A model generated the notes under the pieces. The model was not told where the DNA came from and did no database searches. It saw nothing but the letters and a program-made list of their open reading frames with translations. Positions 3,261-17,337 of a stretch of 17,337 nt of DNA are shown piece after piece. Origin of the DNA: a virus (lineage: Duplodnaviria > Heunggongvirae > Uroviricota > Caudoviricetes); the IMG/VR virus record IMGVR_UViG_2778261161_000005. One strand, given 5' to 3'. Every line of letters starts with the position of its first letter. Position 1 is the stretch's first letter. Position numbers and translations under genes: made by a program.

Positions 3261-3461
3261 ATGAAAGCGTATTGGGACTCTTTAACCAAAGAACAGCAGG
3301 GCGAGTTGGCCGGAAAAGTTGGCTCAACACCTGGCTACTTACGGCTGGTTTTCAATGGTTATAAAAAAGCCAGTTTTGTGCTGGCGAAAAAACTTGAGCA
3401 ATGCACGTCAGGTGCAATTACGAAATCTGACTTAAGACCGGATATCTACCGTGACATTTGA
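3261..3461 (+). CDS. Cro-like/YdaS-family small HTH regulator (66 aa)
   Basis: ATG at 3261 with GGAGG SD at 3246-3250; small protein with an HTH-like core (GELAGKVGSTPGYLRLV) and a C-terminal LRPDIY motif; divergent from the S24 repressor. The track ORF 3156..3461 is trimmed. Confidence 0.7.
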   Translation: MKAYWDSLTKEQQGELAGKVGSTPGYLRLVFNGYKKASFVLAKKLEQCTSGAITKSDLRPDIYRDI

Positions 3462-3550
3462 AGAGAAGTATGGCTCCCAACTGGAGCTGATATTTCGTTT
3501 TATCGATCGTGCGCTGGCAATTGGCGTACTGGCGTAAGTGGAGAACGAGC

Positions 3551-4303
3551 ATGAACCTTGAAGCCTTACCAAAATATTACTCCCCAAAATCTCCAAAATT
3601 GAGTGATGCCGCACCGGCGACAGGCTCAGGTGGTTTAACGATTACGGATGTGATGGCTGCGCAGGGGATGGTGCAGTCGAAAGCACCGCTTGGGTTTGCC
3701 TTATTCCTGGCAAAAGCTGGCGTTCAGGATCCTCAGTTTGCGATTGAAGGTCTGCTCAATTACGCGATGGCACTGGATAACCCGACATTGAACAAATTGA
3801 GTGAAGAAATCCGGTTACAGATCATCCCTTACCTTGTGAGTTTTGCCTTTGCTGATTATTCCAGGTCTGCGGCAAGTAAGGCTCGCTGTGAGCCTTGTGC
3901 TGGTACTGGATTTCATAATGTATTGCGCGAAGTGGTGAAATACTCCAGAAGCGGGGAGTCTGTTATCAAGGAAGAGTGGGTGAAGGAACTATGTCAGCAT
4001 TGTCATGGTAAGGGAGAAGTCAGCACAGCGTGCAGAGGGTGTAAGGGTAAAGGTATTGTCCTGGATGAAAAAAGGACCCGGCTTCATGGCGCGCCTGTTT
4101 ATAAGATTTGTGGGCGTTGCAATGGAAACCGGTTTAGTCGTTTACCAACGACACTGGCGCGGTGTCATGTCCAGAAGCTGGTACCAGACCTGACTGATTA
4201 TCAGTGGTACAAAGGATATGCAGATGTCATTGATAAACTGGTTACAAAGTGCTGGCAGGAAGAAGCATATGCTGAGGTGCAATTAAGAAAAGTGACGAGA
4301 TAA
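3551..4303 (+). CDS. quuQ: late-gene antitermination protein Q (QuuQ/QuuD-like, 250 aa)
   Basis: ATG at 3551 with GGAG SD; several Cys-x2-Cys pairs (CEPCAGTG, CQHCHGKG, CRGCKGKG, CGRCNGN) typical of phage-82-type Q proteins; immediately followed by a promoter plus terminator pair. The track ORF 3509..4303 is trimmed. Confidence 0.75.
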   Translation: MNLEALPKYYSPKSPKLSDAAPATGSGGLTITDVMAAQGMVQSKAPLGFALFLAKAGVQDPQFAIEGLLNYAMALDNPTLNKLSEEIRLQIIPYLVSFAFADYSRSAASKARCEPCAGTGFHNVLREVVKYSRSGESVIKEEWVKELCQHCHGKGEVSTACRGCKGKGIVLDEKRTRLHGAPVYKICGRCNGNRFSRLPTTLARCHVQKLVPDLTDYQWYKGYADVIDKLVTKCWQEEAYAEVQLRKVTR

Positions 4304-4718: not shown

Positions 4719-4931
4719 TCATGAAAGGTAAACATTGGCAGCTGAAGGGCCACGCAGACCATTTATCCGGCAAAATTCCACGCGTAATCCGGTGGTAATT
4801 TCTTCTGCATCGCGGAGATTGAGCGCTGAAACATGAAGCTGGACATCGATACGACCATCGGATGGGGTGATAAGACCCTTGCCGCTTTTGCCGTCAAAGG
4901 TTTTGACAATTCCTGTCATTTTACGGGACAA
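4719..4931 (-). CDS. cspF: cold-shock-like protein CspF (70 aa)
   Basis: Translation [27 protein letters not shown]...[10 protein letters not shown] matches the CspF/CspH subfamily as recalled; divergent from cspB as in Qin. Confidence 0.85.
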
Positions 4932-5231
4932 AAAAATTCCTTAATACTGATAACTGGGCGCACTATACACACGTTCCTGAAGAAAGCTATAGTTTTTTGA
5001 TGGGGTTGAAGATGGCTGGATGTCTAAAATAAACATTGCTTCATATGTTCAACTATGCGTTAATGATTGCGTCGGTTTGAAGAACAGACGATATACGAAG
5101 TAGTTTACTAAAGCAGTTCTCATTTCAGGTGTTATTCACTTATTCCTTCTTTGAGTCTCTCCAATTAAGTACGAAGTCGTTTCTGTTATACAAGCCATTT
5201 ATGCCGAAAGGCTCAAGTTAAGGAATGTAGA

Positions 5232-5447
5232 ATGTCAAATAAAATGACTGGTTTAGTAAAATGGTTTAACGCTGATAAAGGTTTTGGCTTTATTTCTCCT
5301 GTTGATGGTAGTAAAGATGTGTTTGTGCATTTTTCTGCGATTCAGAATGATAATTTTCGAACCTTATTTGAAGGTCAAAAGGTTACCTTCTCTGTAGAGA
5401 GTGGTGCTAAAGGTCCTGCAGCAGCAAATGTCATAATTACTGATTAA
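5232..5447 (+). CDS. cspB: cold-shock protein CspB (71 aa)
   Basis: Translation [38 protein letters not shown]... carries the RNP1 (KGFGFI) and RNP2 (VFVHF) motifs; about 270 nt of upstream leader-length DNA as in cspA-family genes. Confidence 0.9.
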
Positions 5448-5728
5448 AATTCATAGTTTGTCTGTATACGATAACGAAGAAGGCTGATGCCTGAGTGGAG
5501 ATACAGACAGAGTGGTGAATATTGGATCTCTTTAATAAATAGTAAGGAGGTCCAATACATGAAACAATGGCCAGCATATTTGGCAATAACTTAATCAGGA
5601 AAAGTATGCTAACCATTGTGGTGAAGTGCAGGTTTGCTGCATGAATAGTTTTACAGCAGAAGCTAACTGCTGGCATAGCAAAACAAAGTGCGTAAGTGGA
5701 TGACTCCCACAAAAAGTACCACAATATT

Positions 5729-5752
5729 AAACCCGCTCAGGCGGGTTTTTTA
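5729..5752. terminator. rho-independent terminator, possibly bidirectional
   Basis: Hairpin AACCCGC-TCAG-GCGGG followed by TTTTTT on the plus strand and a shorter U-run on the minus strand; lies between the cspB region and the convergent minus-strand zinc-ribbon ORF. Confidence 0.55.
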
Positions 5753-5810
5753 TTATCTGCTTTAAATATGTTATTAAAATATAAAAAATACTTGTTACGA
5801 ATAAAATCAA

Positions 5811-6032
5811 TCAAGCTACAGCTTTAAGATTTGTCTGGAATACTTTGTTGCAATGAGGGCAGATCAAAAGGGCACCTTTTTGTACTCTTGAAAAACTGTG
5901 TTCTGACTCTTGGGTGCAGTTTGGGCAGGAACATTTAACGAGATAATTACGGCGTGATTTTGAGTCTTTACGTTCTGACATAGGCTTTTCCTGTATAAAT
6001 GGCCGTATACAGTACACTAAATATGAAAACAT
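5811..6032 (-). CDS. small basic zinc-ribbon protein (CxxC...CxxC), function unknown; the start may be the internal ATG at 5979-5981 (56 aa)
   Basis: Track ORF; two CxxC pairs (CPNC, CPHC) and a basic N-terminus (SERKDSKSRR). The internal ATG has a better SD (AGGAAA) than the first ATG. Confidence 0.45.
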   Translation of the reverse strand: MFSYLVYCIRPFIQEKPMSERKDSKSRRNYLVKCSCPNCTQESEHSFSRVQKGALLICPHCNKVFQTNLKAVA

Positions 6033-6199
6033 ATCTCGTATTATTATTTAATATATGATTTTCTTTTAAAATAATTACCCACATTTTTAATGTGTCTGTT
6101 TTTTAGCGCCGTTGAGAACAACGTTTGCTATAAAAACTAACCCATAGACTCCGATCTTTTCAAACATATTGCACCATCTGTGTACATCGGGGTGAGGAT

Positions 6200-6415
6200 A
6201 TGAAATCAATGGATAAGTTAACAACAGGTATCGCCTATGGCACATCGGCTGGTAATGCTGGTTTCTGGGCATTGCAGTTACTCGATAAAGTAACTCCGTC
6301 ACAGTGGGCTGCAATCGGTGTGCTGGGTAGTCTGGTTTTTGGCCTGCTGACGTATCTGACAAACCTTTATTTCAAGATTAAAGAAGACAGGCGTAAGGTT
6401 GCGAGAAGAGAGTAA
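6200..6415 (+). CDS. essQ: class II (phage-21 S-like) holin/pinholin with dual-start motif
   Basis: Translation [28 protein letters not shown]... is 71 aa with two hydrophobic segments and a charged C-terminus; the MKSM N-terminus gives two possible starts (Met1/Met4); lies directly upstream of the lysis genes. Confidence 0.85.
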
Positions 6416-6419
6416 TCCA

Positions 6420-6971
6420 ATGACACAAGACTATGAACTGGTTGTGAAAGGAGTCCGCAATTTTGAGAATAAAGTGGCGGTAACTGTAGCCTTACGGGAC
6501 AAAAAACGCTTTGACGGTGAAATTTTTGACCTGGACATCTCGCTGGACCGTGTTGAAGGTGCCGCGCTGGAGTTTTATGAGGCAGCAGCCAGAATGAGAA
6601 TCAGACAGGTATTCCTGGATGTTGCTGCCGGGTTATGTGTAGGGGATGAGCAGTCGCCGGAAAAGCGCCCCATAATTTTAGAGGCGCAGAATGTGTGGAT
6701 AACCTACAAAGGAAAGCTACCGGGAAGAATTACTGGTTCTCTGAAGACGCCACCGACGGCATTGCGGTCAGAAAAAGATGATATTGAATCGCCCATTGAA
6801 AAACTGGAGGGCAGCGTCGCTGATCTGAATAAAAAATTGTCGGTGCTGATCCCTTCTGAAGATGAAAAAAAACGCCGCGATGAGCAGTTTGCGGCGTTTT
6901 ACGATTATTGCATTGAAGTTACTCGCAGGAATTTTGTGAAGATTTTTGAGGAGGGTAAATCTCTTCAGTAA
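6420..6971 (+). CDS. YdfR-like (DUF1327) lysis-cassette protein with a long C-terminal extension
   Basis: ATG at 6420 (MTQDYELVVKGVRNFENK...) with its SD inside the holin 3' end; the N-terminal roughly 100 aa resemble YdfR as recalled. The track start at 6399 is a TTG inside the holin gene. Confidence 0.6.
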   Translation: MTQDYELVVKGVRNFENKVAVTVALRDKKRFDGEIFDLDISLDRVEGAALEFYEAAARMRIRQVFLDVAAGLCVGDEQSPEKRPIILEAQNVWITYKGKLPGRITGSLKTPPTALRSEKDDIESPIEKLEGSVADLNKKLSVLIPSEDEKKRRDEQFAAFYDYCIEVTRRNFVKIFEEGKSLQ

Positions 6972-7179
6972 GCTTAATGGCGGACGCTGCAATTAATTCA
7001 GGAAGGTCCGCAAGGTCATCTGTCAGTGGATATGATGAAAAATCGGCGGCAGTTCTGTTAAGAAGCGCTTTAACTAATTCCTTTTCCTTCTCCGGCAACA
7101 AGTTGATTAGAGCTACGACTGCTTGCCTGAGTGCGATTAAATCAGCAAAAGTTTGTTTTGGTAGATTTGTGTAATCCAT
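6919..7179 (-). CDS. hypothetical small helical protein, antisense within the lysis cassette (about 86 aa)
   Basis: Minus-strand ORF with ATG at 7177-7179 preceded by AGAGGTG SD; the track start at 7185 is a GTG. It occupies the 320-bp gap between the YdfR-like gene and the lysozyme gene and overlaps the YdfR-like 3' end by about 50 nt. No recognisable family. Confidence 0.35.
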   Translation of the reverse strand: MDYTNLPKQTFADLIALRQAVVALINLLPEKEKELVKALLNRTAADFSSYPLTDDLADLPELIAASAIKLTEEIYPPQKSSQNSCE

Positions 7180-7292
7180 AGTCACCTCTGTGTTTATCAG
7201 ATTGACATCCTCCTCCCGCCAGTGCCCATCACTGGTGAGGTAAGATTTAACATATCCGGGGATTTGAAGCCGATAAATCCTGATAAATATCC

Positions 7293-8320
<1,028 letters not shown>

Positions 8321-8683
8321 ATTAATATTAAATCGGATTATTTTTAGCGCTGAATGTGAAATTTAAATAAAAAGGACTCTTCCATGAGTCAAAATCCTTG
8401 AAATCTTAAGGGTAAGATAAAAGGTCATTAGACAGAATGACACGTTTTATTAATAAATAAAGCTATTGTTTCATTCGTGTGTTTTTCTTTACAAAAGTAA
8501 TCCTTGCTATGGTTGGTTAATCATGCGTTAATGGTGTTCTGGTTTGTTACAAAATTATCTGAAGCAGTCATTGTTATAATTTTATTATTTGTACCTCTTG
8601 AGATCTCCTTGTTGGTTTTTCTCTCTGATATTTTTTTTCGGACCATTCTGCCCAAGGGCTAACTTCTTCAAAAGGTAATAATG

Positions 8684-8896
8684 ATGTCTAACAAAATGAC
8701 TGGTTTAGTGAAATGGTTTAACCCTGAAAAAGGTTTTGGTTTCATCACGCCGAAAGATGGTAGCAAAGATGTGTTTGTCCATTTCTCAGTTATTCAGAGC
8801 AACGATTTCAAAACGTTAACTGAGAATCAGGAAGTCGAATTTGGTATTGAGAACGGACCTAAAGGCCCCGCGGCTGTTCATGTAGTGGCACTTTGA
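8684..8896 (+). CDS. cspI: cold-shock protein CspI (70 aa)
   Basis: Translation [45 protein letters not shown]... matches CspI as recalled; about 360 nt of upstream leader-length DNA. The track starts one codon earlier (8681). Confidence 0.9.
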
Positions 8897-9100
8897 GGTA
8901 GAAAATATTACAAACCATATTCACTTTAGATGCCCGTGTTGCCATGGTTCTCAGTATAGAACATCATCTTTTGATGTTTCTGACAGGAATCCTTTCGGGG
9001 CAAAATGTATCTTTTGTAAATCAATGATGATTACATTTGATAATATTTCACAATACTTAAATGTTAGCCGTCTGTCGTTAGATTTAAGAAAGTGAAAATG

Positions 9101-9124: not shown

Positions 9125-9167
9125 CTTAGTGTCTAGTCGATGGATACTCACATATTACGGTAACATT

Positions 9168-9398
9168 ATGAAAAAAATAATAGTTTTTTTTAACTCTGAA
9201 CCAGCAATGGTAGTGCCAGTGATGACCGGAGTTAACACCATCATGCGTGAATATCCAAATGGCGAAACAACACACCTCACTGTAATGGCTGCAGGGTTTC
9301 CATCTCTGACCGGAGATCATAAAGTCATTTATGTAGCAGCGGATCGACATGTAACTTCAGAAGAAATTCTGGAAGCAGCAATGAGACTCTTGAATTGA
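9168..9398 (+). CDS. small prophage protein, possibly YnfN-like (about 76 aa)
   Basis: Internal ATG (MKKIIVFFNSEPAMVV...) of track ORF 9129..9398; position between cspI and gnsB as in Qin; family assignment is from memory only. Confidence 0.4.
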   Translation: MKKIIVFFNSEPAMVVPVMTGVNTIMREYPNGETTHLTVMAAGFPSLTGDHKVIYVAADRHVTSEEILEAAMRLLN

Positions 9399-15461: not shown

Positions 15462-16036
15462 TGGCATTCAGAATGAGTGAACAACCACGGACCATAAAAA
15501 TTTATAATCTGCTGGCCGGAACTAATGAATTTATTGGTGAAGGTGACGCATATATTCCGCCTCATACAGGTCTGCCAGCAAACAGTACCGATATTGCACC
15601 GCCAGATATTCCGGCAGGCTTCGTGGCTGTTTTCAACAGTGATGAGGCATCGTGGCATCTCGTTGAAGACCATCGGGGTAAAACGGTTTATGACGTAGCG
15701 TCAGGGGACGCGTTATTTATTTCTGAACTCGGTCCGTTACCGGAAAATGTTACCTGGTTATCGCCGGAAGGGGAGTTTCAGAAGTGGAACGGCACAGCCT
15801 GGGTGAAAGATGCAGAAGCAGAAAAACTGTTCCGGATCCGGGAGGCGGAAGAAACAAAAAACAGCCTGATGCAGGTAGCCAGTGAGCATATTGCGCCGCT
15901 TCAGGATGCTGCAGATCTGGAAATTGCAACGGAGGAAGAAATCTCGTTGCTGGAAGCATGGAAAAAGTATCGGGTATTGCTGAACCGTGTTGATACGTCA
16001 ACTGCACAGGATATTGAATGGCCAGCACTGCCGTAG
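15461..16036 (+). CDS. tail fibre assembly protein (Tfa), 191 aa
   Basis: Translation [39 protein letters not shown]... matches TfaQ/TfaR-type proteins as recalled; start overlaps the stf stop (TAATG). Confidence 0.85.
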
Positions 16037-17103: not shown

Positions 17104-17337
17104 TTACACTTTACCATTTAAATTTTGGTTGTCTTTAAGAACTGATATCGCTGTTTGTAATAATTCTTTGTTATCCAGCCATGACTTTTTCTTTATGTTT
17201 CCTTCAATGTAATCAAGCAATGTTCTGGTATTGATAGGTCTTCCCTGTTTTGCTACTTCCACGACAGCATCTCCCAGGATAATTCTGACTTCAGGAAGCT
17301 GCGCAGGGAACCACTTTAGGGTGTCTTTTGATTTCAT
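17104..17337 (-). CDS. ydfK: YdfK/YnaE-family small prophage protein (77 aa)
   Basis: Translation MKSKDTLKWFPAQLPEVRIILGDAVVEVAKQGRPINTRTLLDYIEG... matches YdfK/YnaE as recalled; the start codon is the last three bases of the window. Confidence 0.75.
   Translation of the reverse strand: MKSKDTLKWFPAQLPEVRIILGDAVVEVAKQGRPINTRTLLDYIEGNIKKKSWLDNKELLQTAISVLKDNQNLNGKV

Follow-up and report, generated by a model that had tools for sequence, protein, structure and literature searches.

What is the small, basic open reading frame (ORF) that lies antisense to the late operon of a Qin-like prophage, between a cold-shock gene and the holin, and does it serve the phage? The window analyzed here is a stretch of 17,337 nucleotides of viral DNA (IMG/VR record IMGVR_UViG_2778261161_000005). 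A sequence-only reading of it had reported an ORF of 73 amino acids on the strand opposite the late genes, between the cspB terminator and the holin. Indeed, the ORF is present exactly as described, with correct coordinates, and its surroundings are as follows.

4719..4931, minus strand: cspF, divergent from cspB (RefSeq annotation)
5232..5447, plus strand: cspB, a cold-shock gene convergent with ynfU (RefSeq annotation)
5729..5748, no strand assigned: GC-rich hairpin with an 8-bp stem, between the convergent cspB and ynfU (terminator scan)
5811..6032, minus strand: the open reading frame of 73 codons, 73 aa
5811..5981, minus strand: ynfU coding sequence (CDS), 56 aa plus stop (RefSeq CDS WP_001405948.1, from the 100%-identical CFT073 locus)
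6200..6415, plus strand: essQ, a class II holin, on the strand opposite ynfU

The sequence-only reading did not recognize this ORF, and yet it is an already known gene: it is ynfU (K-12 number b4776), a member of the PF23499/NF038384 family. By megablast, the locus at 5700..6200 is present in 1,653 of 5,426 complete E. coli genomes, and many of these copies, including those of CFT073, S88, and APEC O1, are 100% identical; the annotation under the match reads "ynfU: putative zinc-binding protein YnfU." The protein encoded in the window is identical to RefSeq WP_001405948.1 and shares 96% identity with the commonest E. coli YnfU cluster. It matches Pfam PF23499 (YnfU) with 106.9 bits against a cutoff of 27 (4.7e-31, model positions 1 to 49 of 49) and NCBIfam NF038384 with 78.7 bits against a cutoff of 36 (1.7e-22, model positions 1 to 51 of 52).

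Translation of this gene has been published. Weaver et al. profiled ribosomes stalled at initiation in E. coli K-12, detected YnfU in this way, and verified it with a chromosomal SPA tag; none of the other small proteins new in their study reached so high a level. This detection was made at 37°C in rich medium. PIRT-Seq then provides an independent detection of ynfU translation in K-12, and the published K-12 product is 56 aa long. The literature we searched for YnfU gave neither a functional assignment nor a metal analysis. K-12 YnfU occupies the same place between cspB and essQ in a Qin-like prophage and has the same length of 56 aa and the same two CPxC knuckles. Nothing of substance differs, except that the allele in the window lies in a more complete prophage of the CFT073 type, with terminase and portal retained. 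The gene order in CFT073 is the Q antiterminator, cspF, cspB, ynfU, essQ, ydfR, rrrQ, rzpQ, cspI, a gene that RefSeq labels ynfQ, ynfN, gnsB, terminase, and portal. The gene labeled ynfQ encodes a YmcF-like protein.

Together with its T-run, the hairpin at 5729..5748 forms a clear, strong intrinsic terminator of cspB on the plus strand, as judged by the terminator scan. Folded on the minus strand, it keeps the same 8-bp stem, with a U-tract that is poor on the ynfU side, and it may have a second role in ending ynfU transcripts. This terminator follows the cspB stop codon at a distance of about 280 nt (5448..5728, plus strand). From cspB to ynfU the gap measures about 370 nt in most loci of Escherichia and Shigella, compared with only about 90 to 260 nt in a number of other genera, among them Klebsiella, Raoultella, and Enterobacter; the long spacer of E. 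coli may be a long 3′ untranslated region or an inserted element. When the cspB-ynfU and ynfU-essQ spacers were scanned with Rfam, only subthreshold matches centered on the terminator hairpin were found. The cspA thermoregulator of Rfam (RF01766) is matched twice over its full length on the plus strand, once over the cspB leader and coding region (5071..5510, 156.5 bits) and once over the cspI leader and coding region (8537..8942, 116.8 bits). The prophage thus holds two cold-regulated csp units that flank the lysis cassette. Elsewhere, in the phage morphogenesis region, Rfam IS009 (RF02111) has a full-length match at 15804..16002 on the plus strand (221.5 bits, E = 1e-54).

Since the sequence-only reading had left the product at 56 to 73 aa, we considered which start codon is used. 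The 56-aa form, which begins at an internal methionine (ATG at 5981) and reads MSERKDSKSRRNYLVKCSCPNCTQESEHSFSRVQKGALLICPHCNKVFQTNLKAVA, is supported as the real product by both family models, the RefSeq CDS, the ribosome-binding site, and the upstream footprint. The 73-aa form is not supported and was dropped: PF23499 and NF038384 both begin at its residue 18, RefSeq annotates the 56-aa CDS, and the footprint of the promoter overlaps the extension. The upstream elements are these.

5982..6032, minus strand: in-frame upstream extension of 17 codons, holding the leader, the ribosome-binding site, and the core promoter
5989..5992, minus strand: Shine-Dalgarno sequence AGGA, 7 nt before the ATG at 5981 (read from the sequence)
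6009..6014, minus strand: candidate -10 hexamer TACTGT, consensus TATGGT (phylogenetic footprint)
6032..6037, minus strand: weak -35-like GAGATA with a nearly invariant G, at a 17-nt spacing to the -10 hexamer (conserved alignment columns)
6032..6056, minus strand: the -35-like hexamer together with an A/T-rich, UP-like tract upstream of it (conserved columns A12, A15, and G22)

Across 52 diverse ynfU loci, the upstream region has the order A/T-rich tract, near-invariant G, 17 nt, gTGTAtGGT, about 15 nt, CAGGA, 6 to 8 nt, and ATG. The CAGGA is nearly invariant in these 52 loci, and in the -10-like hexamer the T, the A, and the final T are nearly invariant across genera. RNAalifold predicted 0 conserved pairs in the same 52 upstream regions. 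Conservation upstream without RNA pairing is best read as that of a sigma-70-type promoter and a ribosome-binding site, and ynfU thus appears to have its own promoter of this type, with a weak -35 element and a UP-like tract. Transcription would start near 6002. The ATG of the 73-aa ORF (6032..6030) overlaps the -35-like hexamer and so falls outside the likely transcript, and the 5982..6032 extension is probably left untranslated. A simple consensus scanner chose a different pair, the E. coli-specific TTTAAA/AATAAT at 6070..6043. A structured leader or RNA thermometer for ynfU was also considered and rejected: a CTGTATA/TATACAG hairpin that can be seen by eye is E. coli-specific and not conserved, and in a comparison of the leader with Rfam, the cspA-type thermoregulator and every other family stayed below the gathering score.

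We then asked how well the gene is conserved, using homologues from 74 species-representative genomes and eight phage records, two of which we annotated. The ynfU frame is open in all 68 distinct core homologous sequences, and any other frame is open in at most 4 of the 68. The median pairwise dN/dS among these 68 sequences is 0.13. Variation is concentrated at third codon positions, with column entropies of 0.60, 0.32, and 1.19 at the first, second, and third. YnfU is under strong purifying selection, and a chance or spurious ORF is excluded. The four knuckle cysteines C19, C22, C41, and C44 are invariant, as are P20, P42, and the loop between the knuckles, S26-E-H-S-F-(S/T)-R-(V/I)-Q-K-G36, both in the curated alignment of 27 sequences and in those genes that are intact among 69 distinct sequences from 73 loci. 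C17 varies and is therefore not a ligand. The conservation of both ORF and cysteines, on which the sequence-only reading had staked its proposal, is thus strong.

The family is narrow. A search at an E value of 1e-3 or better found only 40 of 1.84 billion representative proteins. When a second search was seeded with the distant members, every named match was in Enterobacterales: Serratia, Hafnia, Yersinia, Erwinia, Brenneria, Morganella, and Mangrovibacter, with second paralogues in Citrobacter, Kluyvera, Klebsiella, and Raoultella. The YnfU family is confined to Enterobacterales and is mostly chromosomal.

What kind of protein is it? The description of a small, basic zinc ribbon with two CxxC pairs and a Lys/Arg-rich N terminus holds: the 56-aa form has two CPxC pairs, CPNC (C19/C22) and CPHC (C41/C44), and Lys or Arg occupies 7 of the first 16 positions, which makes the N-terminal tail basic. 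AlphaFold2, run with the 27-sequence alignment, returned a moderately confident zinc ribbon (mean pLDDT 70, core 75 to 82) with strands at residues 14 to 18, 25 to 29, 38 to 40, and 47 to 49 and a short helix at 30 to 34. Going by this model and the Cys4 pattern, the two knuckles (C19, C22, C41, and C44) very probably hold one structural Zn2+. Could YnfU then handle metal instead of binding macromolecules, for instance by buffering or donating zinc or through an iron site like that of rubredoxin? The four invariant cysteines and the RefSeq name "putative zinc-binding protein" fit this idea, and a preprint lists ynfU with suf genes as upregulated in lag phase and under hypomagnetic conditions, which is weak and indirect support. 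However, a protein of 56 aa with one Cys4 site is what one expects of a structural zinc ribbon, conservation is highest in the loop that joins the knuckles, as would suit a binding surface, and rubredoxin is absent among the Pfam families listed for YnfU. We regard metal handling as the most improbable of the explanations considered here.

The comparison with known zinc ribbons places YnfU apart from them. As the sequence-only reading had judged by eye, it is neither an Ogr/Delta nor a TraR/DksA zinc finger: Ogr/Delta is absent among the best 25 Pfam matches listed for YnfU, up to E = 10, and so is TraR/DksA. As a further point against TraR/DksA, the YnfU model has only a helix of 5 residues and lacks long ones. 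Among the 27 members, secondary Pfam matches are to the PhnA zinc ribbon (24 of 27), the terminase GpA zinc finger (22 of 27), and zf-DNL (8 of 27), all below the gathering cutoffs. Membership in the PhnA, DNL, SprT, GpA, and Elf1 zinc ribbons was rejected, since every match fell below its gathering cutoff. A profile search against PDB sequences gave Tim15 (DNL finger, 2E2Z) at E = 0.0096, L44e at 0.066, and PA0128 at 0.084, which we judged not significant.

Weaver et al. drew attention to the pair of CPxC zinc knuckles in YnfU and to a moderate match with PA0128, which is PhnA-like. The N-terminal zinc ribbon of PhnA/YjdM (PF08274; Pseudomonas aeruginosa PA0128, PDB 2AKL) has in common with YnfU a single CxxC...CxxC ribbon of similar spacing, but YnfU scores 21.6 to 22.4 bits against a cutoff of 30.8, so that the resemblance is at the level of the fold only. 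PhnA also has an extra C-terminal domain and lacks the SEHSFSRVQKG loop of YnfU. The DNL finger (Tim15/Zim17/Hep1, PF05180, PDB 2E2Z) is the best PDB sequence match and has the pattern CxxC-x3-S-x-H-...-KG-x-L-I-x-CPxC in common with YnfU, which nevertheless reaches only 13.4 bits against a cutoff of 27. In YnfU the C-terminal segment after the second knuckle, where D-N-L would fall, is short and variable. DNL fingers are Hsp70 escort proteins of eukaryotic organelles.

A Foldseek search with the YnfU model gave no significant match (top E values, 0.4 to 1.6). At the top of this nonsignificant list were small zinc ribbons bound to archaeal ribosomes, HVO_2753, and Tim15. The archaeal ribosome-bound ribbons and HVO_2753-like microproteins (9FHL chain C, 9O17 chain AZ, and 6YDH) resemble YnfU in size (50 to 60 aa), CPxC knuckles, basic character, and fold, and the closest matches, 9fhl_C, 9znf_BV, and 9o17_AZ, show 32 to 34% identity over 35 to 38 columns. 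With E values of 0.4 to 1.6 and sequence-level homology not detected, they are a lead to how YnfU might work and not evidence of membership. Judged on these profile scores, YnfU is its own small family within the zinc-ribbon fold class, outside Ogr/Delta, TraR/DksA, PhnA, and DNL.

The next question is what ynfU travels with. Counts of csp neighbors come from targeted tblastn, and the further contexts come from Pfam-annotated contigs; a crude calling of neighbors by longest ORF was abandoned because antisense ORFs were miscalled over short genes. In 50 of 74 species, ynfU has a csp gene of the CspA family within 1.2 kb, and in 27 it has two. As in the window, a csp gene is convergent and just downstream of ynfU in 32 of the 74 loci. 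The ynfU-cspB-cspF trio recurs in 27 of the 74 and is also found in phage PHB10 at a different genome position. Clustering the 74 loci by their far flanks gave 22 contexts, 15 of which keep the csp pairing. The lambdoid lysis region is only one of the 22 and accounts for 9 loci (Escherichia, Shigella, two Citrobacter, and Yokenella). The conserved neighbor of ynfU is a cold-shock gene and not the holin. Among the Klebsiella, Enterobacter, Lelliottia, Kluyvera, Yersinia, Hafnia, Serratia, and Citrobacter loci, no annotated phage genes were found within flanks of 3.5 to 5 kb on each side. The surroundings in these genera are as follows.

Klebsiella: a transsulfuration-type gene (Cys_Met_Meta_PP), ynfU, a CSD gene, PTS genes
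Enterobacter: a tautomerase gene, ynfU, an HTH gene (in one place, two uncharacterized genes and a PAAR gene)
Lelliottia: an ABC transporter, a YnaE-like gene, ynfU, a CSD gene, pgsA-uvrC
Kluyvera: thrS-infC-rpmI, a YmcF-like gene, ynfU, two CSD genes, a YniD-like gene, pfkB
Yersinia: homologue directly after dsbB
Hafnia: ynfU, a DUF2058 gene, a CSD gene
Serratia: homologue adjoining a TolA-like gene
Citrobacter: paralogue between mgtS and an M3 peptidase gene

The Citrobacter paralogue deserves a remark. In contigs L095 to L097 (3501..3674), a divergent YnfU paralogue lies between a gene for an MgtS-like small protein and an M3 peptidase gene, followed by genes for a short-chain dehydrogenase and a GntR-type regulator. 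The equivalent K-12 region, mgtS-dcp-ydfG-ydfH, adjoins the Qin prophage.

These contexts bear on whether YnfU serves the phage, as the sequence-only reading had implied by pointing to late-gene expression and infection. As a zinc finger of the Ogr/Delta kind, YnfU could control late transcription or lysis; alternatively, encoded ahead of the holin and expressed in the lysogen, it could act in exclusion or defense. In Escherichia, Shigella, some Citrobacter, and Klebsiella phage ST13-OXA48phi12.4, ynfU is indeed divergent just upstream of the holin, in this phage with no csp gene; eight deposited phage genomes carry it, and its position antisense to the late transcript could bring read-through into collision with ynfU transcription. 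However, the lysis region is a single context of the 22, and many homologues have no phage genes nearby. Escherichia phage PHB10 has ynfU-cspB-cspF beside an integrase gene and umuDC, away from the lysis region. Neither Ogr/Delta nor TraR/DksA is among the listed Pfam matches, the PADLOC-DB defense models gave 0 families at E ≤ 1, and PHROGs gave no significant match, the weak ones being only to families of unknown function. YnfU probably does not regulate late transcription or lysis, and a phage role of either kind seems to us highly unlikely. Most homologues lie in nonphage chromosomal contexts, the conserved neighbor is a csp gene, and the phage framing is not supported.

The csp genes are not the only companions. 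A YmcF-like gene lies within 3 kb of ynfU in 21 of 74 species, and ynfN does so in 19, in most cases along with the YmcF-like gene. Phytobacter and a single Kosakonia genome have leftward ynfN, ymcF-like, and cspI next to a rightward ynfU (ynfN<-ymcF-like<-cspI<- then ->ynfU), which is the order in the window minus the lysis cassette (6200..8320). The simplest reading of this synteny is that a small cold-shock gene island preexists in Enterobacteriaceae chromosomes and moves as a unit, and that the Qin-like prophage would carry it as cargo around its lysis genes.

Several small genes in the window touch on this island. In the window, ynfN is an ORF of 89 aa at 9129..9398 on the plus strand, is found also at 3403..3630 of Kluyvera contig L087, and has no match in Pfam; it appears to be another conserved member. 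The YmcF-like zinc-ribbon gene at 8907..9095 on the plus strand (PF23641, 7.4e-33; motifs CPCC...CIFC) begins 11 nt past the cspI stop codon. It starts with ATT, 8 nt after a GAGG Shine-Dalgarno sequence, and is missing from the ORF list because of this start codon. Few E. coli genes start with AUU. GAGG, 8 nt, and ATT follow one another in the same way in the Kluyvera homologue (L087, 3676..3852). Like YnfU, YmcF-like proteins have a CxxC...CxxC pattern in about 60 aa and recur in the same cold-shock islands, but the YmcF-like gene sits on the csp strand; homology between the two was rejected (hhalign probability, 0.65%). Finally, a truncated ORF at the end of the window (17104..17337, minus strand) shows 62% identity to the YnaE-family (PF27475) protein that adjoins ynfU in Lelliottia. 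This makes it a further small gene common to the prophage and to a chromosomal ynfU-csp locus, and a search of the ORF against our local Pfam copy gave no match.

How might these pieces fit together? The explanation we favor, and hold to be somewhat better than an even bet, is that ynfU is a genuine translated zinc-ribbon gene carried as cargo of a mobile cold-shock gene island, with a binding role linked to cold shock, and not a phage regulator. It would be transcribed from its own promoter opposite the late operon and expressed in the lysogen as a "moron," outside the lysis program and without need of Q-dependent late transcription, whose read-through past the cspB terminator would be antisense to ynfU. 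The family would not be an invention of the phage. Its main branch travels with cold-shock genes (cspB/cspG/cspI-like and cspF/cspH-like), and YnfU itself would most likely be a small binding module in which the invariant loop and the conserved basic tail form the binding surface. It is possible, though we hold it only tentatively, that it binds RNA, the ribosome, or a protein of RNA metabolism or cold acclimation, alongside the neighboring Csp proteins. In a more specific form, YnfU would be a dedicated partner of CspB/CspF-type proteins that binds RNA or the ribosome in cold acclimation, and with the YmcF-like protein, YnfN, and YnaE it would make up a mobile "cold-shock island" captured by lambdoid phages around the lysis cassette, giving lysogens fitness in the cold; this version we consider rather unlikely. 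The functional link to the csp genes is drawn from genomic linkage and is to be read as a suggestion. The neighboring Qin small ORF YnfR is cold-induced, which provides a precedent for a cold-linked role of YnfU. Against such a role count the absence of significant structural matches and the abundance of YnfU at 37°C, which makes it a protein that is not specific to the cold.

This abundance also suits another possibility, that YnfU is a generic small regulator that binds a larger host protein unrelated to cold shock and that its adjacency to csp genes is hitchhiking in a mobile island. Weaver et al. point out that many characterized E. coli small proteins act through binding larger proteins. 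The distant branch (Yersinia, Serratia, and the Citrobacter paralogue) has no adjacent csp gene, and neither has about one-third of the main-branch loci, so csp adjacency may reflect comobility and not a common function. Yet the pairing survives 15 flanking contexts and several gene orders, and pure hitchhiking is not obviously enough to account for that. We regard binding to an unrelated host protein as a realistic minority option, with about equal weight to the specific mechanism through cold shock and RNA.

As a gene, ynfU is not new: databases annotate it, Pfam and NCBIfam each have a family for it, and its translation has been published. This analysis adds that the 56-aa start is the one to choose, that a promoter footprint lies upstream, and that the family is restricted to Enterobacterales and repeatedly linked to csp genes. 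This linkage, found in many contexts, offers a testable functional lead on YnfU, which is among the better expressed of the orphan small proteins in E. coli, and it redirects the hypothesis for YnfU function away from phage late regulation. The locus also illustrates how the lysis cassette of a lambdoid prophage can be flanked on either side by stress genes of host type.
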